From: an uncultured Pseudomonadota bacterium
GTDB lineage: Bacteria > Pseudomonadota > Alphaproteobacteria > JACZXZ01
Direction of reading: 5' to 3'
Assembly: GCA_963749075.1 (NCBI GenBank)
Contig: CAVVLJ010000017.1
Coordinates: 320,001 to 384,000 of the forward strand
DNA length: 64,000 nt
Numbering within the stretch: the first letter of the stretch is position 1; the number at the start of each line of letters is the position of its first letter. Shown here piece by piece: positions 2,532 through 27,898 of the stretch. Made by a program: the position numbers and the translations under genes. The notes below the pieces were generated by a model. It ran no database searches, had not been told where the DNA came from, and saw nothing but the letters and a program-made list of their open reading frames with translations.

Positions 2532-3874
2532 GCCGCCTCACCGTTCAACCGTGCCAGCGCGCGGGGACGGCCGATGAGCGGCAGCAGGGCTGCGAGCTCC
2601 GGCCCCCGCTCGCGGCCGGTGAGCGCCAGGCGCAAGGGGTGGAAGAGCGCCTTGCCGCTGCGCCCCGTGGCGCGCTTGAGGCTCTCGGTCCAGGCGCTCC
2701 AGGTGGCACGGTCCCACGGCTCGGGCGGCAGTGCCGCCGCCGCCTGCCGCGCGAAGCCCGCGTCCTCGATGAGGGGTGCGAGCTCGCCGTGGACCACGCG
2801 CCACCAGAGCGCCGCATCGTCGAGGCGCGTCAAGTTGCCGCGAACCGCCTCCCAGAAGGCGCGGTCGGCGTCCTCGAGCCCGAGGGCCGCGAGCCGGCCG
2901 GCCACCGCCTCGAACGGCGTCGAATGGAGGAGGCGTGCGTTGAGGCGCTGCAGCTCGTCGAGGTCGAACTTGGGCGTCGAGCGGCTGAAGTGGGAGATGT
3001 CGAACTCGGCTACGAGCTCGGCGAGCGACGCGCGCGGCTCGATGGCATCGGACGTGCCGAGCTTGGCAAGGAGGCTCGCGAGCGCCATGGGCTCGATGCC
3101 GCGCTCGCGAAGCTCGCCGAGCGAAAGGCTGCCGAGGCGCTTCGAGAAGCCAGCACCGCTCGCATCCGCGAGGAGCGGCAGATGGCCGAAGGCGAGCGCC
3201 TTCGCATCTCCGCCAAGCGCCGCGAAGAGCTCGATGTGGACCGCGGTATTGGCCACGTGGTCCTCGCCGCGGATGACGTGGCTGATGCCGAACTCGAGAT
3301 CGTCGGCGACGGAGGCGAGCGTGTAGAGCGGCCGGCCGTCGGCGCGCACGAGCACGGGATCGGAGAGATGGCCCGGCTCGAAGCGCACGCTGCCGCGCAC
3401 GAGGTCCTGCCACTCGACCGCCGCGTCCGAGAGGAGGAAGCGGTAGTGGGGAAGCCGGCCCGCCTGCTCGTATTTGCGCTTCTCCTCGGTGCCGAGCTTG
3501 AGTGCTGCGCGGTCGTAGACCGGGGGTGCCCGGCGGGCGAGCTGCATCTTGCGTTTGAGCTCGAGCTCCTCGGGCGTCTCGTAGCAGGGATAGAGCCGGC
3601 CCATGGCAGCGAGTTTCTGCGCGGCCTCGGCGTAGCGCGGCAGGCGGTCCGACTGGCGCGCGAAGCGGTCCCAGGCGAGGCCGAGCCAGGCGAGGTCCTC
3701 CTTGATCGCCTCCTCGAAGGCGCGCGTCGAGCGCTCCTCGTCGGTGTCGTCGATGCGGAGGAGGAAGCTGCCGCCGTGCTTGCGCGCGAAGAGCCAGTTG
3801 ATGAGCGCCGTGCGCACATTGCCGACGTGAAGCCGGCCGGTCGGGCTGGGTGCCACGCGCACGGCGACGGGCAT
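2528..3874 (-). CDS. gltX: Glutamate--tRNA ligase (probably the second alphaproteobacterial GluRS)
   Basis: [31 protein letters not shown] motifs. Confidence 0.95.
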
Positions 3875-3880
3875 GCGGGA

Positions 3881-5536
3881 TCAGCCCTTGAAGCGGTTGG
3901 TGATCGGGTAGCGCCGGTCGCGCCCGAAGGCGCGCCGCGTGATCTTCACGCCGGGGGCTGCCTGGCGGCGCTTGTACTCGGCGCGGTCGAGCATGGACCA
4001 CACGCGCATCACGGTCGTCCGCTCGAAGCCCTTGGCCACGATCTCCTCGGGCCGCATCTCATGCTCGATGAGGCATTCGAGGATGCCGTCGAGGGTCTCG
4101 TAGGGCGGCAGCGTGTCCTGGTCGGTCTGGTTGGGCTTGAGCTCCGCCGTGGGCGCCTTGGCGATGATGCGCTCGGGGATGACGCGCCCCGCGGGGCCGA
4201 GAGCGCCCGCGGGATGCGCCTGGTTGCGCCAGCGCGAGAGGCCGTAGACCGTCGTCTTGTAGATGTCCTTGAGCGCGTTGTAGCCGCCGCACATGTCGCC
4301 GTAGAGCGTGGCATAGCCGACCGACATCTCGGACTTGTTGCCGGTGGTGAGCAGCATGTTTCCCGTGGCGTTGCTCAGCGCCATGAGCACCATGGCGCGC
4401 GCGCGCGGCTGGATGTTCTCGGCCGTGACCTCGGATGGCCTGCTGCCGAGCGCGGGTGCCAGCATGGCATCGAAGGCCTCGACCGCGGGCGCTATCGACA
4501 CGGTCTCGAGCGGGCAGCCGGTCAATGCTGCGAGCTCCGCTGCGTCCTCCATGCTCGCGTCCGAGGTGAAGCGCGAGGGGAGGCGCACGCAATGCACCTT
4601 CCGAGGGCCCAGCGCGTCGGCGGCGACGACGGCGGTCAGCGCCGAATCGATGCCGCCCGAGAGCCCGACAAGCACGCCCGGGAAGCCGTTCTTGGTGACG
4701 TAGTCGCGCACGCCGAGAAGCATCGCCTGATAGGTCGCCTCGAGGCCGTTGCGAATGGCCGCGATGCCGTCCGTCTCGCAGCGCCAGCCCTCGCCCGCAC
4801 GCCGCCAGCGCGTGGTGGCAACCGCCTCGCGCCAGGCCGGAAGCTGGGCCGCGAGCGTGCGGTCGGCGTTGAGTGCAAAGGAGGCGCCGTCGAACACCAG
4901 CTCGTCCTGGCCGCCCACCTCGTTGACGTAGATGAGCGGCAGGCCGGTCTCGACGATGCGGGCTGTGGCGAGGTCGATGCGCTCGTCGGACTTGTTGCTC
5001 TCGAAGGGCGAGCCGTTGATGACGACGAGGATCTCGGCACCCGATTCGGCGAGCGTCTCGCTCACGTCGGGGAACCACAGGTCCTCGCACACCTGGAGGC
5101 CGAGCCGCACGCCCTTGAACACGATGGGACCGGGCGCCGGGCCGGCGGCGAAGACGCGCTTCTCGTCGAAGACGCCGTAGTTCGGCAGCTCGTGCTTGAA
5201 GCGGATGTAGGAGATGCCGCCGCCCTCGAGCAGCAACGCCGCGTTGAAGAGCTTGCCGCCGCCGCGCCAGGGAGCGCCCACGATCACCGCCGGCCCGCCG
5301 TCAGCGGTCTCCTTGGCGAACTCCTTGACGGCAAGCTCGACCGCGTCCTGGAAGGCGGGCTTGAGCACGAGATCCTCGGGCGGATAGCCGGCTATGACGA
5401 GCTCGCTGGCGACGACGATGTCCGCCCTCTCCCCCGCCGCCACCGCGCGCGCGCGGCGCAGCAGCGCCACGTTCCCCGCGATGTCGCCGACCGTCGGGTT
5501 GAGCTGCGCCAGGGCGATCGAGAGGCTGTCGGTCAT
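3881..5536 (-). CDS. nadE: Glutamine-dependent NAD+ synthetase
   Basis: N-terminal nitrilase domain (GYPPEDL, KHELPNYGVFDEKR, CEDLW) plus SGGIDS, TGNKSE, GYATLYGD and AEYKRRQ. Confidence 0.97.
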   Translation of the reverse strand: MTDSLSIALAQLNPTVGDIAGNVALLRRARAVAAGERADIVVASELVIAGYPPEDLVLKPAFQDAVELAVKEFAKETADGGPAVIVGAPWRGGGKLFNAALLLEGGGISYIRFKHELPNYGVFDEKRVFAAGPAPGPIVFKGVRLGLQVCEDLWFPDVSETLAESGAEILVVINGSPFESNKSDERIDLATARIVETGLPLIYVNEVGGQDELVFDGASFALNADRTLAAQLPAWREAVATTRWRRAGEGWRCETDGIAAIRNGLEATYQAMLLGVRDYVTKNGFPGVLVGLSGGIDSALTAVVAADALGPRKVHCVRLPSRFTSDASMEDAAELAALTGCPLETVSIAPAVEAFDAMLAPALGSRPSEVTAENIQPRARAMVLMALSNATGNMLLTTGNKSEMSVGYATLYGDMCGGYNALKDIYKTTVYGLSRWRNQAHPAGALGPAGRVIPERIIAKAPTAELKPNQTDQDTLPPYETLDGILECLIEHEMRPEEIVAKGFERTTVMRVWSMLDRAEYKRRQAAPGVKITRRAFGRDRRYPITNRFKG

Positions 5537-7778: not shown

Positions 7779-7893
7779 GCCGGCGGCTCACAAAAAAGCG
7801 GCCGAACCGGCCGCCGCGCAATTCTCCAGCATGAAAACAAACTAGCACGCCGATGGCCGTCGGTCAAACCTGGTTGAACTTTTTCATCCGCCG

Positions 7894-8226
7894 TCAACCG
7901 GGCGCGAGCCAGGCAAAGAGCACGATCGCGCCGACGCCCACCGCGGCCGCGATGAGGATGTTCTTGCGGCTCGCGTAGAAGGCCGCGAGCGAGAGGGCTG
8001 CGGCGGCAAGGCGCGCCCAGAGGGGAAGCTCCTTAAGCTCGCCGATCGGCAGCACGATCATGCGCGCGACGAGGCCGGCCAAGAGCGCGTAGGCGACGCA
8101 GCCCGTCCAGCGGAAGACGGCACCGCGCGGGTCGATGCGGCCGGCGAGTGCTACGCCCAAGCCGCGCCAGAGATAGGTGACCGCCGTCGCCGCGAGGATG
8201 GCGGGCCAGATCGAGGCCTCACGCAC
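7894..8226 (-). CDS. azlD: AzlD-family branched-chain amino acid exporter subunit
   Basis: Small hydrophobic protein with TYLWRGLG and YALLAGLVARMI; overlaps the azlC end; GTG start inferred. Confidence 0.8.
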   Translation of the reverse strand: MREASIWPAILAATAVTYLWRGLGVALAGRIDPRGAVFRWTGCVAYALLAGLVARMIVLPIGELKELPLWARLAAAALSLAAFYASRKNILIAAAVGVGAIVLFAWLAPG

Positions 8227-8965
8227 GGCGCCTCGCCTCCGCGAGCGCTTGCCGCGCCTCCGCCCGACGGTCGAGGAGGAAGGCCAAGGTGCCGGCGACG
8301 ACGCCGGTGAGCGGCAGGCCCCAGTCCGGCGTTGCGAGGTGGAAGAGCGGTCCGAGCACGGCGCCGGCCGTGAGCGCATAGAGCCGCGCGCGCTCGCGCA
8401 GGTCGGCGGTGAAGAGCAGCATGAAGTAGAGCGGATTGAGGAAGACGAGGCCCAAGGAGACGACATGGGGAAGCCCGCCCGCGAGTGCGAAGCCGCCGGC
8501 GGTGCCGGTGAAGCAACCCGCCCACAGCACGACCGTGAGACCGAAGAAGTAGGGGAGCCGCCTCTCCTCCTCGAGGCCCGGGCAGCGCTGCATGGCGAAG
8601 ACCCAGCTCGTCACCGCGACGAGCTGCGCCACCGGGTAGTAGAGCCAGCCCGGCCAATGGCGCGTGCGCAAATGCGCCATCAGCACCACGGTCATGGGAA
8701 GGAAGCGCGCATTGGTGAGTGCCACGGTGGTGGCGATGACGAGGAGCGAGCCGCCGGCGCCGTAGAGCTCGACGAGCGCCACCTGGCCCGGCAGCGCCCA
8801 GACGCCGAGGGTGGTGGCGAGCCCGGGGAGGAGGCCGAGCCCGGTCGCATGCACGAGCGAGCCGAAGCCGAGATAGCTCGCAGTCAAGGTCAAGGCCGGC
8901 AGGCCGCAGGCGTCGCGCAAGCCGAGTGCGAACGCCTCGCGGCGCGCGGACGAAGTCGTCGCCAT
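8219..8965 (-). CDS. azlC: AzlC-family permease
   Basis: WALPGQV and NARFLPM motifs, multiple TM segments. Confidence 0.85.
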   Translation of the reverse strand: MATTSSARREAFALGLRDACGLPALTLTASYLGFGSLVHATGLGLLPGLATTLGVWALPGQVALVELYGAGGSLLVIATTVALTNARFLPMTVVLMAHLRTRHWPGWLYYPVAQLVAVTSWVFAMQRCPGLEEERRLPYFFGLTVVLWAGCFTGTAGGFALAGGLPHVVSLGLVFLNPLYFMLLFTADLRERARLYALTAGAVLGPLFHLATPDWGLPLTGVVAGTLAFLLDRRAEARQALAEARRRA

Positions 8966-9096: not shown

Positions 9097-9495
9097 ATGC
9101 CGACACCGCCCGTCTTCCACATGATCCCGGGTGCGGCCCATCCGGTCGCCCCCTATTGCCACGCCGTCGAGGTGGGGGATTGGATCCTGCTCACCGGCCA
9201 GGTGCCGAACGATCCGCCCAACGACGCGGCACCGCTGCCGCCCGACATCGAGGGCCAGGCGCGGCGCACCATGGAGAACCTGCGGCTCGTGCTGCAAGGC
9301 CTCGGGCTCGACCTCGCTCACATCGTCTCGGCGCGCGTCTTCCTCACGCATTTCGAGGAGGATTACGAGCGCATGAACGCGGTCTACCGCGGCTACTTCG
9401 CGCCCGACCGCCTGCCGGCGCGCACCTGCATCGGCGTCACGGCACTCGCGCGCGGCGCCCGCATCGAGATCGACGCGGTGGCGCGGAGGGGGTGA
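9097..9495 (+). CDS. RidA/YjgF-family protein
   Basis: PYCHAV, TGQVP, MNAVY, PARTCIGV, IEIDAVA; AGGAG RBS. Confidence 0.9.
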   Translation: MPTPPVFHMIPGAAHPVAPYCHAVEVGDWILLTGQVPNDPPNDAAPLPPDIEGQARRTMENLRLVLQGLGLDLAHIVSARVFLTHFEEDYERMNAVYRGYFAPDRLPARTCIGVTALARGARIEIDAVARRG

Positions 9496-9515
9496 GGATG
9501 CGGACGCCTTGCTGA

Positions 9516-9615
9516 CCCCCCTCCCTACCCTCCCCCTCAAGGGGGGAGGGGAAAGATGAGCAGGCTGACTAAACGAGCCCCCTCCCCCCTTGAGGGGGAG
9601 GGTTGGGGTGGGGGG
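9516..9615. repeat. REP doublet with 26-nt spacer between convergent genes
   Basis: Same arms as 1759-1859. Confidence 0.9.
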
Positions 9616-9628
9616 TAAAGAAAAGCCC

Positions 9629-10747
9629 CTACTTCCGCAGCAGCCACTCGCGGCCGACCTTGACGCGCGGGGTGCCGTTGTAGGCGACGATGTCGGCGGT
9701 GGCGTAGGTCTCGTGCCAGTTCTCGGGCAGATAGGAGCCGGTGCCGACCACGTCGATCGGCGCATTGGCGACGGCCATCACCTTGCACTTGGCCGGACCG
9801 AAGCCCGAGGAGGCGACGATCTTGACGTTGGCAAAGCCCGCCTGGTCGAGGCGCTCGCGCAGATACCAGATCGCCGCCGCGGAGACGCCGGTGCCGATGA
9901 GGTAGCGCAGCTCCGTGTCGGTGCGGAAGCCGCGCAACGAATCGGGCGCATTGCGCTCGAGCACCGCGTAGGAGCGCTGCGGGTCGAGCTCCTCCATGAA
10001 GCGGCCGCCGCTGGTGTCGAGGCGCACCGCGAGCCCGCCTTTGGCCGCGAGCTCGGGAAAGCGGCGGGCGACGGCGAGCGTATCGCTGACCTCGCGCCCG
10101 AAGTAATCGACCAGCACCGTGAGCATGGCGTCGGGATGCGCCTCGTGGAACATCTCGGCCGCGGCGACGGTCGAGCCGGCATAGCCAATGAGGGCGTGCG
10201 GCATGGTGCCGAGGCCCTTCTTCTGGCCGAAGTAGTGGGCGGTGGCGTCGGTCGCGTTGCCGACGAAGCCCTTGGCCGCCACTTTACGCCGCGCGCGCGC
10301 CGAGCCGACCGAGGCGGCATAGGCCATCATCTCGGCCATCTCGGCGCCGGCGCAGTGGCGCGCGTCCATGGCGAGAAAAGCGACCCGGGGCAGATCGGCG
10401 CACATGGTGAAGGCGTTGTAGGCCGCGACGCAGGCGGGTCCGATCTTCTGCAGATAGATCGTCTCGAGATCGATGAGGTGATAGAGCGGGCCCGAGAGAT
10501 AGAGGAGCGGCTCGCCGGCGCCGACCCACTTGCCCTCGGGATAGATGAGGTCGATCTCGAACTTGGTCTGGCGCCGCTCGGCGACCGCGAGGAGCCACTC
10601 GACGGCGAGCCGCGGCGCGCTCACCACGGGGCGGCGCAGGAAGACCGCATAGGTGGCGCGCGTGTCGCCGAACTTGCCGACGACCGCCTTGCTGCGGTTG
10701 AAGTAGGCGTCGGTGAGGCGCTCGATCTCGTCGACATCGGGATGCAT
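9629..10747 (-). CDS. Nicotinate phosphoribosyltransferase-family protein
   Basis: TDAYF, MDARH, GTMPHALI, VRLDTSG, IVASSGF, GTGS: type II phosphoribosyltransferase motifs. Confidence 0.85.
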   Translation of the reverse strand: MHPDVDEIERLTDAYFNRSKAVVGKFGDTRATYAVFLRRPVVSAPRLAVEWLLAVAERRQTKFEIDLIYPEGKWVGAGEPLLYLSGPLYHLIDLETIYLQKIGPACVAAYNAFTMCADLPRVAFLAMDARHCAGAEMAEMMAYAASVGSARARRKVAAKGFVGNATDATAHYFGQKKGLGTMPHALIGYAGSTVAAAEMFHEAHPDAMLTVLVDYFGREVSDTLAVARRFPELAAKGGLAVRLDTSGGRFMEELDPQRSYAVLERNAPDSLRGFRTDTELRYLIGTGVSAAAIWYLRERLDQAGFANVKIVASSGFGPAKCKVMAVANAPIDVVGTGSYLPENWHETYATADIVAYNGTPRVKVGREWLLRK

Positions 10748-11164: not shown

Positions 11165-12214
11165 TCACATCAGGAAGACGCCTTTCCCGGCGTTCTGCGC
11201 GTCGAACAGGCGATAGGCCTCCGCCGCCTGCTCGAGGCGCCAGCGGTGGGTGAAGAGGCGCTCGACCGCGACGTTACGCTCGACGACGAAGCTCGCGCAC
11301 TCGGCCTGGCCGATGGTCGAGAAGGTCCACGAGCCGATGACGGTGAGCTGCCTCCGCAAGAGATCGCGGCTCACGTCGAGGGTGACGCTGCCGCCCTCGC
11401 CCACGAAGCAAGCAGTACCCCAGGTGCGCGTGCTCTGCACGGCGGCGAGCCGCGCCGCGGGCGCGCCCGAGGTGTCGAGGGTGAGATCGGCGCCGGCGCC
11501 GTGGGTGAGCTCGTTGATCGCGGCGACGGGATCGGTGCTGCCGGGATCGACGGTCTCGGCAGCACCGAACTCCTTGGCGCGGGCGAGCCGCTCGGGGCTC
11601 ACGTCGAGGGCGATGACGCGGGCACCCATGGCCGCCGCGAGCTGGGTCGCCGAGAGGCCGACCGGGCCCTGGCCGAAGACGGCGAGCACGTCGCGGCCCG
11701 AGAGGTTCATGCGCCTGAGTGCTGCATAGGCCGTCCCGGTGCCGCAGGAGATGGCGGCTCCGACCGCGAAGCTCAGCGCCTCGGGCAAGGGAACCAGCGT
11801 CGCCGCAGGCACCTTCATGTAGGGCGCGTGCGCGCCGTGGCCGGTGAAGCCGTAGACCACGATGCCCTCGCGGCAGAGCTGCGCCCAGCCGCTGCGGCAA
11901 TGGCCGCACACGCCGCAGCCCTTGTAGTGATGCACCATCGCGCGCATGCCGGGCCGGGCCTGGCGCTCGTGACACACGGCCCGACCGCGGCCACGATCCC
12001 GCAGGGCTCGTGCCCGGCGATCACCGGACCGGCGTCCGCGCCGAGACCGAGTGCCGCCGCAGCGTCGCTCCTCGGCGGCGCGGTAGGGCTTGAGATCCGA
12101 GCCGCACATCCCCGAGGCCTTGATCTCGAGCACCACCTCGCCCGGTCCCGGCGTCGGGTCGGGAAAGCTCATGAGCTCGACCGCACGGTCGCCGGTGAAG
12201 ACGACGCCTTTCAT
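11165..12214 (-). CDS. Zinc-binding (MDR) dehydrogenase with an internal segment read out of frame
   Basis: GMCGSD, structural Zn CGVCGHC..C, GQGPVG; the conserved GHEPCG motif lies in another frame between about 11965 and 12075 (two compensating frameshifts). Confidence 0.85.
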   Translation of the reverse strand: MKGVVFTGDRAVELMSFPDPTPGPGEVVLEIKASGMCGSDLKPYRAAEERRCGGTRSRRGRRSGDRRARALRDRGRGRAVCHERQARPGMRAMVHHYKGCGVCGHCRSGWAQLCREGIVVYGFTGHGAHAPYMKVPAATLVPLPEALSFAVGAAISCGTGTAYAALRRMNLSGRDVLAVFGQGPVGLSATQLAAAMGARVIALDVSPERLARAKEFGAAETVDPGSTDPVAAINELTHGAGADLTLDTSGAPAARLAAVQSTRTWGTACFVGEGGSVTLDVSRDLLRRQLTVIGSWTFSTIGQAECASFVVERNVAVERLFTHRWRLEQAAEAYRLFDAQNAGKGVFLM

Positions 12215-12248
12215 GACGGAGCTTCTCCCTGATCAGAGCTTTCTTAAA

Positions 12249-12295
12249 CCCCCCACCCTACCCTCCCCCTCAAGGGGGGAGGGTAGGGTGGGGGG
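12249..12295. repeat. Collapsed (spacerless) REP doublet, near-perfect hairpin; may act as a terminator
   Basis: CCCCCCACCCTACCCTCCCCCT-CA-AGGGGGGAGGGTAGGGTGGGGGG. Confidence 0.88.
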
Positions 12296-12313
12296 TACGC
12301 CTTTCCGATACCG

Positions 12314-13696
12314 CTACGACGCCGCCGCCACTCTGTGGGCGCTCTCCGTGCGCAGGGACTTGAGCTCCTCGGCGATGAGGAAGGCGAGCTCGAGCGCCTG
12401 GGTGGCGTTGAGGCGCGGGTCGCAGTGCGTGTGGTAGCGGTCGGCGAGCTGGCTCTCGTCGATCGCCTGGGCGCCGCCGATGCACTCGGTCACCTCCTGG
12501 CCGGTCATCTCGAAATGCACGCCTCCCGCGAAGGTGCCCTCGGCCTGGTGCACGGCGAAAAAGCGGCGCACCTCGCCGAGGATGCGGTCGAAGGCACGCG
12601 TCTTGTAGCCGTTGGCGGACTTGACCGTATTGCCGTGCATGGGATCGCACGCCCACACGACCTTCTTGCCCTCGCGCTCGACGGCGCGGATGAGGGGCGG
12701 CAGCTTCTTCTCCACCAAATCCATGCCCATGCGCGCGATGAGGGTGAGCCGCCCGGGCTCGTTGGCCGGATTGAGCGCGTCCGCGAGCCGGAGGAGATCG
12801 TCGGGCGCGAGCGAGGGCCCGCATTTGAGGCCGAGCGGGTTCTTGACCCCGCGCAGGAACTCGACGTGGGCGCCGTCCGCCTGGCGCGTGCGGTCGCCGA
12901 TCCAGAGGAGATGCGCCGAGCAGCCGTACCAGTCCCCGGTCAGGCTGTCCTGGCGGGTGAGCGCTCGCTCGTAAGGGAGGAGCAGCGCCTCGTGGGAGGT
13001 GAAGAAGGAGACCTCGCGCACGCTCGGCGTGCTCTCGGAGGTGAGCCCGCAGGCCTCCATGAAGGCGAGCGCCTCGGTTATGCGGTCGGCGAGCTCCTGG
13101 TAGCGGGCACCCGCGCTGCTCTTGAGCACGAAGTCCTGTGTCCAGCGGTGCACCTTGTGGAGGTCGGCGAAGCCGCCGAGTGCGAAGGCGCGCAAAAGGT
13201 TGAGCGTGGCGGCCGACTGGTTGTAGGCCTGCACCATGCGCTGGGGATCGGGCGTGCGGGCGGCTGCCTCGAACTCGATGCCGTTGATGATGTCGCCGCG
13301 GTAGCTCGGCAGCTCGACCCCACCCTGGCGCTCGCTCTCCTCCGAGCGCGGCTTGGCGAACTGGCCGGCCACGCGCCCCACCTTGACGACCGGCAGTGCC
13401 GCGCCATAAGTGAGCACCACCGCCATCTGGAGAAATACCTTGAAGCTGTCGCGGATGTTGTTGGCGGAGAACTCGGCGAAGCTCTCGGCGCAGTCGCCGC
13501 CCTGGAGGAGGAACGACTTGCCCGCGGCCACGCGCGCGAGCTCGGCCTTCAAGTTGCGCGCCTCGCCGGCGAAGACGAGCGGCGGGAAGCGGGCGAGCTG
13601 CGCCTCGGCGCGGCCGAGCGCCTCCTCGTCGGGATAGACGGGCGCCTGCTTGGCAGGCTTCATGCGCCAACTGTCGGGCGTCCACGGGGCGGCCAT
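12314..13696 (-). CDS. Class II DAHP synthase
   Basis: [44 protein letters not shown]. Confidence 0.96.
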
Positions 13697-13812
13697 GTCT
13701 CGCGTCCTTCGGGTTGCCGTGCTGGAAAGCCCAGTCTATACGACGATTCGATGGTGCTTTCCAGAGCGAAATCCCTCTCCGCGCGCGGCGGCGCCCGTCG
13801 GGCAATGCGCTT

Positions 13813-13845
13813 TTGAACTTCTCTGTATATGATGGTAATATACAG
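13813..13845 (+). promoter_or_regulatory. Putative brnTA promoter with inverted-repeat operator
   Basis: TTGAAC-N17-TAATAT overlapped by CTGTATAT-N7-ATATACAG, immediately before the ATG at 13847. Confidence 0.55.
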
Positions 13846-13846
13846 G

Positions 13847-14149
13847 ATGATCGCGCTCGACCTGATTGTCGGCTTCGAGTGGGACGACGGCAATCTTCGG
13901 AAGAGCGCGGTCAAACATGGCGTGAGCCAGGCCGAGGCGGAGCAGGTGTTTCTCAACGAGCCTTTGCTCGTCGTCGAGGACAGAAGCCACAGCGGCGCCG
14001 AAACGCGGTTCCACGCGCTCGGGAGAAGCGATGCCGGCCGCCGGCTGCACGTGACGTTCACGGTCCGCCAGAACGGAACCTTGATCCGCGTGATCTCGGC
14101 GCGGGACATGCACCGCAAGGAGCGAGTCCGTTATGCAGAAGAGACATAA
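13847..14149 (+). CDS. brnT: BrnT-family ribonuclease toxin
   Basis: FEWDDGN..KHGVS..EAEQVF..HS..E.R..IRVISAR..KER..Y. Confidence 0.9.
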   Translation: MIALDLIVGFEWDDGNLRKSAVKHGVSQAEAEQVFLNEPLLVVEDRSHSGAETRFHALGRSDAGRRLHVTFTVRQNGTLIRVISARDMHRKERVRYAEET

Positions 14150-14402
14150 GACCGCCCCACGCTTCCGAAACGAGGCGGAGGAACGCCGGTTTTGGGAAAG
14201 CCATGATTCGACGGCATATGTGGATTGGCGCTCGGCCGAGCGCGTCCGCATGCCGAACCTCAAGCCGTCCACGGTCTCGATCTCGCTGAGGCTCCCCGCG
14301 GGTCTTCTCGAGCGCATCAAGATCGCGGCCAACAAGCGAGACGTGCCCTATCAATCGCTCATCAAGTCATGGCTCGCCGAGAAGCTCGATCGCCTTTCGT
14401 GA
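14133..14402 (+). CDS. BrnA/CopG-type antitoxin (RHH)
   Basis: P.F..EAEER.FW..HDS and ISLRLP..IK..A.KRDVPYQSLIK.WL; overlaps brnT. Confidence 0.88.
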   Translation: MQKRHKTAPRFRNEAEERRFWESHDSTAYVDWRSAERVRMPNLKPSTVSISLRLPAGLLERIKIAANKRDVPYQSLIKSWLAEKLDRLS

Positions 14403-14409
14403 GCGCCGC

Positions 14410-15786
14410 CTATTCCGCCGCCTGCTTCTCGGGCTCCGGCGCGGCCGTGCGCATGGTGACGAACTCCTCGGCCGCGGTCGGATGGATGCCGATGGTGCGG
14501 TCGAAGTCGCTCTTGGTGGCACCCGCCTTGATCGCCACGGCGAGGCCCTGGATGATCTCGGCTGCCCCCTCCCCCACCATGTGAGCGCCCACCACCCGCC
14601 CGCCCGCGCGCTCGACCACGAGCTTCATCATGGTGCGCTCGTCGCGACCCGAGAGCGTGTGCTTCAGGGGCCGGAAGTGCTGACGGTAGACGTCGACCGC
14701 GCCATGCGACTTGCGCGCCGCCTCCTCGCTCAAGCCGACGGTCGCAAGCTCGGGCTGGCTGAAGACGGCGGCGGGCACGTTGGCGTGATCGGGCCTGGTG
14801 GGATTGCCGTTGAAGACGGTCTCGGCGAAGGCCTGGCCTTCGGCGATCGCCACCGGCGTCAAGTTGATGCGGTCGGTCACGTCGCCCACCGCATAGATGT
14901 TCTCGACGGAGCTCCGCGAGTAGGCGTCGACCTCGACCGCCCCCTTGGCGTTCAGCTTGACGCCCGCCGCCTCGAGCCCCAGCCCCTTGCTCGAGGGCGC
15001 GCGGCCGGTTGCAAACATCACGACGTCGGCCTCGAGCCGCTCGCCGTTCGTGAGCGTCGCGACGAGGCCGGCCGAGCCGCGCTCGACGGCGGCGATCTCG
15101 GCGTTGAAGCGGAGATCGACGCCCTTCTTGCGCGTCTCCTCGGCGAGCGTCTGGCGCAAATCGCCGTCGAAGCCGCGGAGGAAAAGCGGGCCGCGGTAGA
15201 GCTGGGTGACGCGGCTGCCCATGCCGTTGAAGATGCCGGCGAACTCGCAGGCGATGTAGCCGCCGCCCACGATGGCGACGCGTTCGGGGAGGCGCTCGAG
15301 GAAGAAGGCCTCGTTCGAGGTGATGCCATGCCCGGCGCCGTGGAGCGGCGGGATCACCGGCCAGCCGCCCGTGGCGATGAGGATCGTCCCGGCGCTCACG
15401 CGCCGGCTGGGGAGCTCGACCGTATGAGCATCGCGCAAGCTGGCGCGCGACGAGAGGATCTCGACGCCCGACTCCTCGAGGAGCTGGCGGTAGACGCCAT
15501 TGAGCCGCGCGATCTCCTTGTTCTTGTGGGCGATGAGGGCGGGCCAGTCGAAGCGGCGCTCGCCGAGGGTCCAGCCGTAGCCGGCCGCGTCCGCGAAATG
15601 CTCGCTGTAGTGGCTCGCGTAGACGAGGAGCTTCTTGGGGATGCAGCCGACGTTGACGCAGGTGCCGCCCAGGTAGCGCTCCTCGGCGAGGGCCACCCGC
15701 GCGCCGTAGCGCGCCGCGACCCGGCTCGCGCGCACGCCGCCCGAGCCGCCGCCGATCACGAAGAGGTCGTAGTCGTAGCCCGCCAT
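14410..15786 (-). CDS. gor: Glutathione-disulfide reductase
   Basis: GGGSGG, GGTCVNVGCIPKK, GGGYIACEFA, LTPVAI, HPTAAEE. Confidence 0.95.
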   Translation of the reverse strand: MAGYDYDLFVIGGGSGGVRASRVAARYGARVALAEERYLGGTCVNVGCIPKKLLVYASHYSEHFADAAGYGWTLGERRFDWPALIAHKNKEIARLNGVYRQLLEESGVEILSSRASLRDAHTVELPSRRVSAGTILIATGGWPVIPPLHGAGHGITSNEAFFLERLPERVAIVGGGYIACEFAGIFNGMGSRVTQLYRGPLFLRGFDGDLRQTLAEETRKKGVDLRFNAEIAAVERGSAGLVATLTNGERLEADVVMFATGRAPSSKGLGLEAAGVKLNAKGAVEVDAYSRSSVENIYAVGDVTDRINLTPVAIAEGQAFAETVFNGNPTRPDHANVPAAVFSQPELATVGLSEEAARKSHGAVDVYRQHFRPLKHTLSGRDERTMMKLVVERAGGRVVGAHMVGEGAAEIIQGLAVAIKAGATKSDFDRTIGIHPTAAEEFVTMRTAAPEPEKQAAE

Positions 15787-15874
15787 CGCCTGAGCCTTTC
15801 CGCCCCCGGAAGCCGTTCCGTGCCGGGGATATAGCCCAAAACGGCGGGAAGGCGAAGGCGCCGGCGCGTGCCGC

Positions 15875-16321
15875 TCAGTAGCGCTTGTAGGGGAGGAACT
15901 TGCCCGCCATGACGATCTCCACCCGGTCGCCCTTGGGGTCGGGCTTGCGGCGGACCTCCATGTCGAAATCGATGGCGCTCATGATGCCGTCGCCGAACTC
16001 CTCCTCGATGAGCGCCTTGCAAGTGGTGCCATAGACCTGCATGAGCTCGTAGAAGCGGTAGATGAGGGGATCGGTCGGGATCGCGGTGGGCAGCGAGCCG
16101 CGATAGGGCACCTCGGAGAGGAGGGCCGCCTCCTCGGCGCCGAGCCCGAGGAGCTTGGCCGCCTTGGCGGCCTGGGCCTTCTCCAGCGTCATCTGGCCGA
16201 GAAGGGCCGCCGTGATGAAAAGGGGCGAGTTGCCGCCGATCGTCTTGGCGATGGCCTGCCAGGTGAGGCCCTTCTTGCGCTTGGCGGCGATGATCTTCTC
16301 GGTCAGCTCGGCTCGCGTCAT
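15875..16321 (-). CDS. cynS: Cyanase
   Basis: PTDPLIYRFYE, EEFGDGIMSAIDF, GKFLPYK. Confidence 0.96.
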   Translation of the reverse strand: MTRAELTEKIIAAKRKKGLTWQAIAKTIGGNSPLFITAALLGQMTLEKAQAAKAAKLLGLGAEEAALLSEVPYRGSLPTAIPTDPLIYRFYELMQVYGTTCKALIEEEFGDGIMSAIDFDMEVRRKPDPKGDRVEIVMAGKFLPYKRY

Positions 16322-16535
16322 GGCACGGCTCCCTTCCCTTGTCTTTTCTCCAAGGTAGCAACCGCCATGCCAAAGCGGCGGCAGCGGAAGCCGCGCGCCG
16401 GGCCGTCTCGCGCGGCGCCTTTTGTTAGAATCGCCTATTTCTTGAGCAAAATGCGGCGGCCGCAGCCGTCGCGATTGTTTATCGCGACGCCGCTCCCTAG
16501 AATCGCCGCTCCACCGGCTCTCGAGAGGAAGTCCC

Positions 16536-18401
<1,866 letters not shown>

Positions 18402-18423
18402 TCGGCAGGCTTGCGTTAAATTT

Positions 18424-18543
18424 CCTCTCCCCCTTTAGGGGGAGAGGATCAAGGTGAGGGGGCCTCTCGCGGGCAGCCCTGGTGCCACGAGTTCATCGCC
18501 GCTTAGTCCCCCCTCCCTAACCCTCCCCCTCAAGGGGGGAGGG
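18424..18543. repeat. Two REP-like arms in outward-facing orientation
   Basis: CCTCTCCCCCTTTAGGGGGAGAGG..GGTGAGGGGG (18424-18462) and CCCCCTCCCTAACCCTCCCCCTCAAGGGGGGAGGG (18508-18543). Confidence 0.75.
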
Positions 18544-18578
18544 CATATGCATCGCATGGCATAAACTTTACCCTAAGC

Positions 18579-18767
18579 TCACCTGCGGCGCGCGCGACGC
18601 TCCGCGATGATGGCCTCGACGTTGACGGGAGCGGGCGGCCTGCTCCTCAGCCCCGCCTCGATTTCCCGGCGCAATGCGAGACGCTTCTGGTCGTAATCGT
18701 CGAACGGCTTCGACTCCTCACGCGCACGCTGCACAACTTCCCGGGCGGGCCGCACGGTCTTGGCCAT
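18579..18767 (-). CDS. Orphan/truncated ParD-like antitoxin
   Basis: QKRLALRREIEAGLRS.P..VNVEAIIAE.RARR resembles the C-terminal half of ParD; no parE follows; start uncertain. Confidence 0.5.
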   Translation of the reverse strand: MAKTVRPAREVVQRAREESKPFDDYDQKRLALRREIEAGLRSRPPAPVNVEAIIAERRARRR

Positions 18768-18793
18768 CGGTTCATTCCATGCTGGAGGTTGCA

Positions 18794-18830
18794 AGCATAA
18801 CGCGATGTCGAATTTTGTCAAATCTTGACA
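18794..18830 (-). promoter_or_regulatory. Putative sigma70 promoter with a palindrome over the -35
   Basis: Minus strand TTGACA-N16-TATGCT; TGTCAA-ATC-TTGACA palindrome at 18816-18830. Confidence 0.55.
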
Positions 18831-18879
18831 TTTTTACGCGTCCTTGGGGCACCATTCCGTGGCAAACCTGCCACCTCGT

Positions 18880-18929
18880 TCATATCCCCCCATGCACAGA
18901 TACTTCACCTCGAGATACTCCTCGATGCC
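18880..18929 (-). repeat. Displaced copy of the gabD 3' end (att-like direct repeat of 20090-20140)
   Basis: 50 vs 51 bp; differs by two third-position substitutions and one homopolymer indel; encodes GIEEYLEVKYLCMGG. Confidence 0.93.
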
Positions 18930-18945
18930 CGCGCCGGCTGGACGA

Positions 18946-19623
18946 TCACGCCGACATCTTGGATCTGGGCTCGCGAGCCGTAAGCCGCTCCACGAGAACG
19001 GCGAGCTTGTCGAAGATATCCCGAGCGACCGGCATGGTGGAGCGACCGTGAGCAAGCGCGTTTCTCAATGTGACCCCGGGCACGAGCTGGTCGTACTCCT
19101 CCGGCTCCAGCAGGCCGAACGACACCAGGTCCTTAAGAAGCGCGATCGGCGTCTTCGGTCCGTCTCGCGAGACGCCAAGCTCCTTCAGCCGGTGATGGGC
19201 GGCCGCCTCCAAGAGTGACCACAGCAGCAGCAGCGCTGCGGCCTGCTCGTTCGACTCATAGAGCCGACGAGCCGAGCGAAGTTTCTTCCTGATCGCGCTG
19301 GGAGATGGAGGCGGCGGCACATTGGCCGCGCGGCCAGACGGCGGCGCAGCCAAGACCAGCCTGAGCTGCCATCCGGGATGGCGACGGACTTCTGCCGCCA
19401 GGTCTCGCCAGGAACTGGGGTCTTGGCCCCACGAACCGCCTTTAACCTCGACAACCAAATGCTCCGCACCGCGGTGGGCGACAAGATCGGGGCGAAAGCC
19501 GTGCAGGAATTCGGGCAAGTCATTTCTGCCAGGTTCCCGTATAACGTCGTATCCTTGGCGCACGAGATCGTCGGCTGCCCTCGCAATCGCCTCCTTTTCA
19601 ACCTGCGCGGGCTCTGCGGTCAT
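18946..19623 (-). CDS. PD-(D/E)xK restriction-endonuclease-fold domain (AHJR-like) fused to a HEPN-like domain
   Basis: GYDV..P....LPEFL.GFRPDLVA.RG.EHLVVEVK (PD..EVK) plus C-terminal RNALAH (RxxxxH). Confidence 0.78.
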   Translation of the reverse strand: MTAEPAQVEKEAIARAADDLVRQGYDVIREPGRNDLPEFLHGFRPDLVAHRGAEHLVVEVKGGSWGQDPSSWRDLAAEVRRHPGWQLRLVLAAPPSGRAANVPPPPSPSAIRKKLRSARRLYESNEQAAALLLLWSLLEAAAHHRLKELGVSRDGPKTPIALLKDLVSFGLLEPEEYDQLVPGVTLRNALAHGRSTMPVARDIFDKLAVLVERLTAREPRSKMSA

Positions 19624-20030
19624 GACGGTACCTCGCCGTGGTCAGGAGGATTGGAAATACGGATATACACGAAGTCACGGGTGACCCCCGCAAGGGCATT
19701 GGCCAGGCTAGGCGATGGGTTGCGAACTGTGAGTCCTCCGGTCAGGCCGGTCTTGCGCACGATAAGCTGTTCTATAACCCGATCGTTCGCGTAGACGACA
19801 TCCTCCAGGCAATCCAAGATCGGTTTCGCGATATTATCGACATCGAGATCGGTGTAATCGGCATAGAAATAGATGATGAGCGCGCCCACGCCCTCGCCCA
19901 CCAGCGGCGTTCCAGCGGGCAAGCTCGCCTGCGCTGCGGCACGAACATTTCCCTGCCAGCGTCGCTTTGACGGCGACGAGGCTTGTAGCGAGATCGGAGT
20001 GCCGTCAACGGTAAAGTCAAACGGCTCCAC
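19620..20030 (-). CDS. RusA-like endodeoxyribonuclease-fold protein
   Basis: F.VDGTP.S, DVDNIAKPILDCL..VVY.ND..I; ATGA overlap with the downstream gene. Confidence 0.8.
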   Translation of the reverse strand: MEPFDFTVDGTPISLQASSPSKRRWQGNVRAAAQASLPAGTPLVGEGVGALIIYFYADYTDLDVDNIAKPILDCLEDVVYANDRVIEQLIVRKTGLTGGLTVRNPSPSLANALAGVTRDFVYIRISNPPDHGEVPS

Positions 20031-20089
20031 GGATTGTCTTTCGAGCCATAAATGTCTCCGCGGCCAGTATAGCTCCGGCGCCCCTCACA

Positions 20090-21541
20090 TCAAATCCCCC
20101 CCATGCAGAGATACTTCACCTCGAGATACTCCTCGATGCCGTACCTCGAGCCCTCGCGGCCGAGGCCGGACTCCTTGACGCCGCCGAAGGGGGCGATCTC
20201 GGTCGAGATGATGCCGGTGTTGATGCCGACCATGCCGTACTCGAGCGCCTCGGCCACGCGCCAGATGCGGCCGATGTCGCGGCCGTAGAAGTAGCTCGCC
20301 AGGCCGAACTCGGTGTCGTTGGCCATCTCGATGGCCTCGGCGTCGGTGTTGAAGCGGAAGAGCGGCGCCACGGGCCCGAAGGTCTCCTCGCGCGCCACGG
20401 CCATCGAGGGCTTCACGTCGGCGAGTATGGTCGGTTCGAAGAAGGTGCCGCCCCTGGCGTGGCGCTTGCCGCCGACCACGACGCGGGCACCCTTATGAAG
20501 CGCGTCCGCGATGTGCTGCTCGACCTTCTCCACCGCCTTCATGTCGATGAGCGGACCTTGCGTGACGCCCGCCTCGAGGCCGTTGCCGACGCGGAGTGCG
20601 CTCACGGCCTGCGCGAGCTTCGCGGAAAACTCCTCATAGACGCTGTCCTGCACGAGGAGGCGGTTGGCGCAGACGCAGGTTTGGCCGGTGTTGCGGTACT
20701 TCGACGCCATGGCGCCCTCGACCGCGGCGTCGAGATCGGCGTCGTCGAAGACGATGAAGGGCGCATTGCCGCCGAGCTCGAGGGAGATCTTCTTGATGGT
20801 GCCGGCGCACTGCGCCATGAGGAGCTTGCCGATCTCGGTCGAGCCGGTGAAGGAGAGCTTGCGCACGATGGGGTTCGAGGTCATCTCCTTGCCGATCTCG
20901 CCCGAGCTCCCGGTCACCACGCTGAAGGCGCCCTTGGGCACGCCCGCGCGCTCGGCGAGCTCGGCGAGGGCGAGGGCCGAATAAGGCGTCTGGCTCGCCG
21001 GCTTCACCACCATGGTGCAACCGGCGGCGAGCGCCGGGCCCGCCTTGCGCGTGATCATGGCGGCGGGGAAGTTCCACGGCGTGATGGCGACCGTCACCCC
21101 CACCGGCTGCTTGATCACCACGATGCGCTTGTCGGCCTGGTGCTGCGGGATGGTGTCGCCGTAGACGCGCTTGCACTCCTCGGCGAACCACTCGATGAAG
21201 GAGGCGGCATAGACGATCTCGCCCTTCGATTCCGCTAACGGCTTCCCCTGCTCCTCCGTCATGAGCACGGCGAGGTCGTCCTGGTTCTCCATCATGAGGT
21301 CCGCCCACTTGCGCATGACCTTGGCGCGCTCCTTGGCGGTCTTGGCGCGCCAGGCCGGCAGCGCCTTCTCGGCCGCCTCGATGGCGCGGCGCGTCTCATC
21401 CGTGCCCATGCGCGGAACGCTTCCCAGGACCTCGCCCGTGGCGGGGTTGTTGACTTTGATGGTGGCGCCGCCGTCGGCGTCCGTCCAGGCGCCGGCGAGG
21501 TAGCACTGCTGCCGGAACAGGCTCTTGTCCTTGAGCTGCAT
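20090..21541 (-). CDS. gabD: NAD(P)-dependent succinate-semialdehyde dehydrogenase
   Basis: ITPWNFP, SFTGST, LELGGNAP, GQTCVCAN, EETFGP, PFGGVKESG. Confidence 0.95.
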   Translation of the reverse strand: MQLKDKSLFRQQCYLAGAWTDADGGATIKVNNPATGEVLGSVPRMGTDETRRAIEAAEKALPAWRAKTAKERAKVMRKWADLMMENQDDLAVLMTEEQGKPLAESKGEIVYAASFIEWFAEECKRVYGDTIPQHQADKRIVVIKQPVGVTVAITPWNFPAAMITRKAGPALAAGCTMVVKPASQTPYSALALAELAERAGVPKGAFSVVTGSSGEIGKEMTSNPIVRKLSFTGSTEIGKLLMAQCAGTIKKISLELGGNAPFIVFDDADLDAAVEGAMASKYRNTGQTCVCANRLLVQDSVYEEFSAKLAQAVSALRVGNGLEAGVTQGPLIDMKAVEKVEQHIADALHKGARVVVGGKRHARGGTFFEPTILADVKPSMAVAREETFGPVAPLFRFNTDAEAIEMANDTEFGLASYFYGRDIGRIWRVAEALEYGMVGINTGIISTEIAPFGGVKESGLGREGSRYGIEEYLEVKYLCMGGI

Positions 21542-21615
21542 GGCTTCCCTCCCTTGGAAAGACTGGCGGGGTTTCACCAATTATAGGTCCGCGCCGACGC
21601 CGGCGCGAGCCCGAC

Positions 21616-24429: not shown

Positions 24430-24444
24430 CGGCGCGTCGCAATA

Positions 24445-24544
24445 CCCCCCACCCTGCCCTCCCCCTCAAGGGGGGAGGGGAAGGGGTCGGGGCACGCGAT
24501 GACTTGCCCCCTCCCCCCTTGAGGGGGAGGGATGGGGTGGGGGG
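24445..24544. repeat. REP doublet with 26-nt spacer inside the ABC operon, after the binding-protein gene
   Basis: Same arms as 1759-1859. Confidence 0.9.
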
Positions 24545-24555
24545 TCGGCGCCGCA

Positions 24556-27774: not shown

Positions 27775-27795
27775 CGGAAACATTGACGCGCGGCA

Positions 27796-27893
27796 CCCCC
27801 CTCCCTGCCCTCCCCCTCAAGGGGGGAGGGGAAAACGCAGTGGCACGCTCGATGGGCCCCTCCCCCCTTGAGGGGGAGGGTTGGGGTGGGGGG
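27796..27893. repeat. REP doublet with 25-nt spacer between convergent lysE and glmS
   Basis: Same arms as 1759-1859. Confidence 0.9.
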
Positions 27894-27898
27894 TCGCC

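Follow-up and report, generated by a model that had tools for sequence, protein, structure and literature searches.

A two-gene cassette between copies of the gabD 3' end in alphaproteobacterial DNA and its possible insertion by homology

Introduction

Published accounts describe elements that restore the 3' end of the gene they enter, integrase-less elements flanked by attachment (att) sites, and arrays of partial target copies. Here we compare with these known kinds a two-gene cassette that lies between two copies of the end of gabD, the gene for NADP-dependent succinate-semialdehyde dehydrogenase, in a stretch of 64,000 nucleotides (nt) from an uncultured alphaproteobacterium (contig CAVVLJ010000017.1, positions 320,001 to 384,000; hereafter the window). 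The locus differs from them in its target, in that no recombinase was found across 73 loci, in the variable length of the repeat and in a minimal cargo of one or two defence-like genes. We lean tentatively, and at somewhat less than even probability, towards a Campbell-type insertion of an acquired cassette through the gabD tail, driven by homology (RecA-type) rather than by a dedicated site-specific recombinase.

Phage 21 and e14, both at icd, are examples of elements that occupy gene 3' ends. With these, and with the SGI1-type islands at trmE and the dusA-specific islands, the cassette shares an intact target gene, end repeats that act as brackets and a displaced gene end downstream; all of these elements encode or need a known integrase, use an att site of a single fixed length and measure kilobases to tens of kilobases, whereas for the gabD cassettes no integrase was found, the repeats vary in length and the inserts are of 1–2 kb. 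In a literature search gabD turned up neither as an att site nor as an integration target. Cis-mobilizable elements (CIMEs) likewise consist of DNA without a recombinase of its own between att-like repeats, but they derive from, and share att sites with, a co-resident integrative and conjugative element (ICE) or integrative and mobilizable element (IME), and no parent element was found at gabD in the 73 loci. Integron cassettes depend on a folded attC site and on IntI; here the tails have no such fold and no integrase was found. In the tycheposon islands of Prochlorococcus, successive insertions at the end of a single gene displace the earlier ones outward and leave arrays of partial target copies and degraded remnants (10.1101/2020.12.28.424599). 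Such a partial-copy array is shared with one of the further loci described below (L035, at least five gabD 3' fragments, where the window has one), as are defence genes in the cargo (10.1101/2020.12.28.424599). That report also describes a tRNA target, tyrosine recombinases and att-sized partial copies (10.1101/2020.12.28.424599), whereas here the target is gabD and neither tRNA nor recombinase was found in L035 or L045.

Results

Anatomy of the tail duplication

The features of the locus are given in the order in which gabD is read (GC3, GC content at third codon positions).

20090..21580, minus strand: gabD, NADP-dependent succinate-semialdehyde dehydrogenase (NF008415, 916.9 bits, cut-off 828; PF00171, E 9.5e-178; GC3 0.94)
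20090..20140, minus strand: tail copy B, 51 nt, the functional last 16 codons and TGA of gabD
20066..20093, minus strand (read 20093-20066): promoter-like TTGATG-16-TATACT, 9/12 matches in a consensus scan, overlapping the gabD stop codon
18930..20089, minus strand: inserted cassette, 1,160 nt between the tails, with a 59-nt leader, two overlapping genes and a 16-nt trailer
19620..20030, minus strand: P0002, RusA-like junction endonuclease, 136 amino acids from GTG (PF05866, 35.1 bits, cut-off 22.8)
18946..19623, minus strand: P0001, N-terminal Hjc/AHJR-like PD-(D/E)xK nuclease fused to a C-terminal HepT-like HEPN domain, 225 amino acids
18880..18929, minus strand: tail copy A, 50 nt, the displaced gabD 3' end, out of frame past a G run and followed by older downstream DNA

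The direct repeats at the flanks of the cassette include the end of the target gene, and gabD itself is intact. A preliminary description of this DNA had reported that the last 51 bp of gabD recur 1.16 kb downstream with two synonymous third-position substitutions and one homopolymer indel, and direct reading of the two copies gives the same picture: in the gabD sense, copies B and A differ by CTC/CTG, by ATT/ATA and by a run of 7 G versus 6 G, and both substitutions are synonymous. The copies are identical over the first 32 nt of the repeat, and their homology ends precisely at the gabD stop codon; a repeat search returned a gapless 44-nt core of 98% identity, 1,211 nt from start to start. 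Exactly two copies are present in the window, since a 39-nt pattern with up to 3 mismatches matched only 18891-18929 and 20102-20140 (0 expected, 100 shuffles), and no third copy was found with this pattern or by tblastn of the GabD C-terminus over 12000-20100 (E <= 50). The composition of the cassette is foreign: its GC content is lower (0.56-0.68), and the GC3 of the two cargo genes is 0.65 and 0.72 versus 0.94 for gabD. The gabD open reading frame (ORF) was drawn from the first TTG; the alignment to the family model begins at residue 14, so that translation probably starts at the ATG near 21541.

The window is probably part of a metagenome-assembled genome, and the copies differ among other things in the length of a homopolymer, an error typical of long reads; both points would suit an assembly artefact or a chimeric contig. 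The start of P0002 is uncertain, and a 100-amino-acid call from an internal start is recorded on a separate contig of 1,239 nt (known to us from the record alone). The run of unique 31-mers around the cassette, 18900-20138, is likewise exactly 1,239 nt, other values of k giving other lengths, and a contig of this size is the expected product of a k=31 graph if both junctions exist, k=31 being presumably the value used for that public assembly set. Because the recorded contig equals the unique-31-mer run across both junctions, misassembly, which the preliminary description had named as a refuting outcome, is unlikely. In addition, a 1.2-kb insert with 50-nt repeats fits inside single long reads, and the same architecture occurs in two other assemblies, so that an artefact as the source of the whole structure is extremely improbable. 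The 6-G run of the displaced copy lies outside 18900-20138 and could be a homopolymer sequencing error.

Tail duplications in other genomes

A degenerate 32-nt tail pattern was run against 185,579 species genomes and gave 108 stretches on 107 contigs, the window's own contig being absent from the set; 80 of these came with as much as 10 kb of flanking DNA, and the other 28 had only about 600 nt of sequence. For each locus, its own last 700 nt of gabD were blasted against its downstream DNA. Of the 73 distinct contigs in which gabD was followed by at least 500 nt, two showed a tail duplication, L035 and L045. The short weak matches in L015, L046 and L053 (22-112 nt) fell on the 5' part of the 700-nt query, off the tail, and were not counted; extra gabD 3' pieces on plasmids proved to be paralogous aldehyde dehydrogenases, for example hpaE in H40. 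Further tail duplications, which the preliminary description had proposed to look for, therefore exist: insertion at the gabD 3' end recurs in two more genomes, with differing cargo.

In L045, a Stellaceae genome bin, a 233-nt repeat of 98% identity, with copies 2,341 nt apart, encloses a gene of low GC content (cargo GC3 0.62) that runs on the opposite strand and encodes an AIPR abortive-infection protein; 5 of the 5 differences between the copies are synonymous, counting TAA to TAG. In L035, an alphaproteobacterial bin, homologues of the window's RusA-like protein (43% identity) and Hjc-HEPN protein (37%) begin 37 nt past the gabD stop. This pair is followed by at least five gabD 3' fragments (7789-7934, 8181-8304, 9495-10057, 11228-11298 with 11331-11534, and 12674-12730; repeat lengths 147, 124, 567, 71+204 and 57 nt), all in gabD orientation and alternating with an ABC substrate-binding gene, a dienelactone hydrolase and ORFs without assignment. 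The fragments carry frameshifts, internal deletions and a mixture of synonymous and non-synonymous changes, and are therefore older; one Hjc-HEPN gene is truncated. In the window, in L045 and in all the L035 copies the tails are direct repeats in gabD orientation that end exactly at the stop codon, and the duplicated segment ranges overall from 51 to 567 nt (window 51, L045 233). The cargo genes of L035 and L045 were not found as native gabD neighbours elsewhere in the 108 loci.

A possible fourth case is L039, also from Stellaceae, a contig that begins inside the gabD tail (1-96) and that carries two GabD-like fragments downstream on the same strand, at 2361-2894 (residues 290-482, 57% identity) and 3723-3911 (residues 257-326, 51% identity); these may be either old displaced gabD pieces or a wrecked paralogue. 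Separately, the C-terminal region of GabD aligns as two adjoining pieces in L021 (9387-10048) and L076 (9985-10645), which suggests a gabD frameshift or a sequencing error.

Integrated elements decay, and the frameshifted, internally deleted gabD fragments and truncated Hjc-HEPN gene of L035 could be taken to mean that a larger phage, ICE or IME once sat at the gabD end and was reduced to two genes between att copies. Yet all inter-tail segments (at least six, in three genomes) measure 0.3-2.3 kb and contain no fragment of a phage, conjugation or integrase gene; the window operon is intact and tightly packed between nearly identical tails, which argues against long decay; and the same operon stands alone on plasmids. 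We consider such a deletion remnant quite unlikely.

Target specificity and clade

Self-comparison of 81 sequences (1.37 Mb) from the same loci revealed no other protein-gene end that is duplicated. It did return, in a Dechloromonas-like genome bin (L048), a 51-nt direct repeat (98%) at 739-789 and 7911-7961, 7.2 kb apart and overlapping the end of a tRNA-Arg(CCG); such a repeat is the classical mark that integration at a tRNA leaves, and it served solely as a control. The direct repeats in L033, L065, L078 and L079, as judged by eye, resemble hairpin or tandem repeats of intergenic DNA.

In a FastTree phylogeny of 73 GabD sequences the window, L035 and L045 fall into one group of 10 rows (local support 87, not starred) that holds the Stellaceae-labelled rows. 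Tail duplication occurs in 3 of the 10 rows of this group versus 0 of the 63 outside it. By our own arithmetic the chance of such clustering is about 0.002, or 0.014 when the window is dropped because it had been picked for its tail duplication.

Search for a recombinase

No integrase, recombinase or transposase family was found among the ORFs scanned across the 64-kb window, among the scanned ORFs of the 20-kb L035 and L045 loci, in 23 ORFs near gabD in nine relatives, or, across 70 loci, in 248 ORFs (150-800 amino acids) of the 5 kb that follow gabD, the last scan having been run first at E <= 1e-6 and then at E <= 1e-8. Thus the islet is, as first described, integrase-less throughout the ORFs covered. 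Neither tail, on either strand, has an attC-like single-strand fold (z-scores -0.42 to +0.53), and no tRNA was found in L035 or L045.

These results bear on whether the cassettes are integrase-less passengers of a tyrosine or serine recombinase that is specific for the gabD tail and whose gene lies at another place in the genome or on a helper element, in the manner of CIMEs or of the cargo-only remnants in tycheposon islands. Such integration in trans would account for the strict specificity for gabD over 1.37 Mb, for the restriction to one clade and for the tight ends, 6-16 nt past the last stop codon, of two unrelated RusA/Hjc-HEPN cassettes; the architecture is that of elements which restore the 3' end of their target gene, and the tandem fragments of L035 resemble the serial tycheposon integrations and scattered partial tRNAs described earlier (10.1101/2020.12.28.424599). 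On the other side, no autonomous, integrase-bearing element was seen at any gabD tail in the 70 + 3 loci; the at least five repeat lengths, several of them in one array, are unexpected for one recombinase with one core site; and the 1,211-nt circle would offer only 126 nt of non-coding or tail DNA for an attP. We rate this explanation as less likely than not, a little behind insertion by homology.

The cargo genes

The start of P0001 overlaps the stop of P0002 (ATGA), and the two genes form a single operon. In P0002 the residues D63, D65, N66, K69 and D73, a D-x-D-N-x-x-K-x-x-x-D cluster that we take, from E. coli RusA, to be catalytic, are invariant across 9 relatives. P0001 matches PF18743 (AHJR-like restriction endonuclease) with 74.6 bits (cut-off 26.1, E 6.3e-21). 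Across 19 sequences P45 and D46 of its nuclease motif are invariant and E59 nearly so, with K two residues on, and the R-N-A-x-A-H-G motif (Rx4H; R187, H192) is invariant. In an AlphaFold2 model of mean predicted local distance difference test (pLDDT) 87, the N-terminal half has the fold of the archaeal Hjc resolvase (probability 1.0) and the C-terminal half that of HEPN/HepT toxins, matching 2hsb, 7ae6 and 6m6w with probability 1.0 and also 5yep; the Pfam HEPN matches are under the cut-off. A predicted complex of P0001 and P0002 has weak support, with a score of 0.52 against 0.00 for the best of 3 controls, a score of at most 0.60 being a mark reached by 18 of 157 solved complexes and by 2 of 2 mismatches that passed; the prediction runs share at least 89% of their contacts, with a partner pLDDT of at least 84.

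With the HepT/MntA toxin-antitoxin system the pair shares the HepT-like fold of the P0001 C-terminal domain, the Rx4H motif and the two-gene operon. It differs in that the HEPN domain shares one chain with an Hjc-like DNA nuclease and in its partner: the neighbour of P0001 is RusA-like, and no MntA-type nucleotidyltransferase antitoxin is found beside it. The system models of PADLOC 2.0 gave nothing above noise for the cargo (best RTasHEPN, 12.9 bits, E 0.022), and a literature search found no report of a RusA plus HEPN system. The pair also stands alone, as a conserved operon, on Rhizobium, Agrobacterium (pTi) and Azospirillum plasmids, in differing neighbourhoods, one of which adjoins AbiE, an ATPase and a restriction enzyme; gabD is near none of the copies in 5 plasmid loci, and none of the three tested (L001-L003) has flanking repeats. 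The Hjc-HEPN fusion family is widespread, with 3,075 cluster representatives at E <= 1e-3 and 1,040 at <= 1e-30, and its members bear in the Atlas only the label 'REase_AHJR-like domain-containing protein'. From its domain content and context, the pair is probably an uncharacterised toxin- or defence-type module.

A cargo of two nucleases raises the question of whether the cassette moves itself, its RusA-like and Hjc-like enzymes cutting or resolving DNA at the gabD tail in a homing-like or resolvase-assisted manner. The nuclease motifs of both are conserved, and this rare gene pair stands directly after gabD in two genomes, the window and L035, with proteins only 37-43% identical. In the family tree the two gabD-side copies are not sister, L035 lying elsewhere on a long branch with 92/90 support, and a role for the cargo nucleases is therefore kept in view. 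Against such a role, L045 shows tail duplication with an AIPR gene and without such nucleases, the pair is found away from gabD in all 5 plasmid loci and without flanking repeats in all 3 tested, the family is as widespread as stated above, and fusions with HEPN, as is generally known for HepT/HEPN proteins, are a usual trait of effectors in toxicity or defence rather than of enzymes for mobility. Self-movement is in our judgement very unlikely.

Insertion through the gabD tail

Taking the window and L045 together, 7 of 7 substitutions between the tails are synonymous, which fits two alleles kept under selection and not decay in place; the tails would therefore have been functional alleles in different strains, as the preliminary description had supposed for the window. 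If they are, the incoming DNA would have combined the gabD tail of a close relative with compositionally foreign cargo. The insertion by homology towards which we lean would thus have involved circular or circularised DNA that carried the gabD 3' segment of a related strain and foreign cargo, and that recombined with the resident gabD 3' end by a single crossover. With the crossover within the first 32 identical nt, gabD would end in the incoming tail, the distal 19 nt of copy B would have come in with the cassette, and the resident tail would have been displaced 1.2 kb downstream. Of this account we infer the circular intermediate, which enzyme acted and in which direction transfer ran, whereas the anatomy, the foreign composition, the allele-like tails, the recurrence, the restriction to one clade and the lack of integrases in the ORFs covered were observed. 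Compared with relatives, the window gabD has no clear mosaic break that would mark an imported 3' segment.

In the Stellaceae-like clade the gabD end would then act as an address tag for small cassettes: recombination between the bracketing tails could free a circle (here of 1,211 nt) that retains the tag and may re-enter any related gabD. The repeat length, which differs in every case (51 to 567 nt), points to homology as the driver, and the lack of a recombinase nearby and of a folded tail site also counts for it. The preliminary description had proposed a cassette moved in trans or by short homology; the variable repeat length leans to the latter.

Several points weigh against insertion by homology. 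As a substrate for RecA-type recombination, 32 nt of perfect identity within a repeat of 51 nt is very short. Generic homology-driven insertion should strike other conserved genes, and only gabD shows it in these loci; an address tag explains this specificity only after a first, unexplained founding event. In the window the RusA/Hjc-HEPN cassette ends 16 nt past its stop codon and in L035 6 nt past it, and such tight ends look more like defined element ends than like random fragments. Clade restriction would also fit a clade-specific recombinase encoded elsewhere in the genomes, and the second integrase scan (E <= 1e-8, ORFs of 150-800 amino acids) could miss weak or short recombinases. Finally, neither an exact empty site nor a donor nor an excised circle was seen. 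A broader extension, which we think improbable, is an integrase-free cassette system in one alphaproteobacterial clade, in which gabD tails would serve as addresses and small defence or toxin cassettes would insert, excise and pile into integron-like arrays such as L035, possibly aided by the cassette-borne RusA-like and Hjc-like nucleases.

The native neighbourhood of gabD

In at least 10 loci gabD is directly followed by a glutathione-reductase-like gene (gor), sometimes with overlapping stop and start. In the window the gor-like gene is at 14410-15786, and the cassette, a small ORF, recQ and a cyanate lyase gene intervene after gabD. Within the clade the DNA right after gabD differs in nearly every genome. 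No exact empty site was found in a near relative, the contig of the closest (L069) ending 73 nt past gabD in a stretch without a match in the window, and a blastn search with the DNA downstream in the window brought up no relative. The proposal that the gabD 3' end is an attachment site thus holds as regards recurrent tail duplication, differing cargo and the lack of an integrase; for the empty site that should accompany it, the loci supply the broader ancestral state, gabD followed by gor, and not the exact site.

Between the displaced tail and the gor-like gene, at 15875-18821, lie three genes.

18579-18821: ORF of 80 amino acids, no family assigned; GC3 0.75; promoter-like TTGACA-16-TATGCT at 18821-18794
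16536-18401, plus strand: recQ
15875-16588: cyanate lyase gene

Because relatives have gabD and gor adjacent or overlapping, this 3-kb block too is an older insertion, one without a detectable tail copy. Interspersed repeat families of 86-90% identity occur in the window at 12243-12294, 18502-18543, 24444-24547 and 27795-27896, and also at 1759-1858 and 9516-9615; the copy near 18400-18600 has GC-rich hairpins of the CCTCTCCCCC...GGGGGAGAGG type, and these look like intergenic repeats of the repetitive extragenic palindromic (REP) type.

Other small modules were noted in these neighbourhoods. In the window a BrnT toxin and CopG-type (BrnA-like) antitoxin pair (13829-14402, plus strand) stands between the glutathione-reductase-like and class II DAHP synthase genes, which are adjacent in many relatives, and forms a further small selfish module within this conserved backbone. 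L049 has, at 10054-10623, an ORF of 90 amino acids that overlaps the gabD stop and then a MazE-family antitoxin gene, another small toxin-antitoxin-like module at the gabD end, here with no tail duplication. L079 (Roseibium suaedae) carries a RES-domain toxin and an Xre-like antitoxin at 12634-13794 (minus strand), about 2.6 kb downstream of gabD. In L035 an encapsulin (Linocin_M18) gene adjoins a DyP-type peroxidase gene at 14696-16786 (minus strand), within the approximately 10.8 kb that separate gabD from gor.

Expression of the cassette

A consensus promoter scan of the region gave 2 sites versus 0.5 in shuffles and detected nothing terminator-like from the end of gabD to the cassette. For the proposal in the preliminary description that the cassette supplies a promoter itself, the scan offers the 9/12 consensus match at 20093-20066. 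Because the cassette is co-oriented with gabD and no such site separates them, transcriptional read-through from gabD and use of the cassette's own candidate promoter appear equally possible.

Significance

The movement of one- and two-gene defence or toxin modules without a mobility gene is poorly understood. The locus described here is concrete and testable: it has one target, the end of gabD, in at least three genomes, with varied cargo, no integrase and a predicted 1,211-nt circle. Should insertion be addressed by homology, a conserved gene end can serve as a portable attachment site; should a hidden recombinase be responsible, gabD would be a new target and the cassettes its passengers. 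The RusA-like protein and the Hjc-like/HEPN fusion constitute a widespread, uncharacterised two-gene module that is a candidate for toxicity or phage defence.

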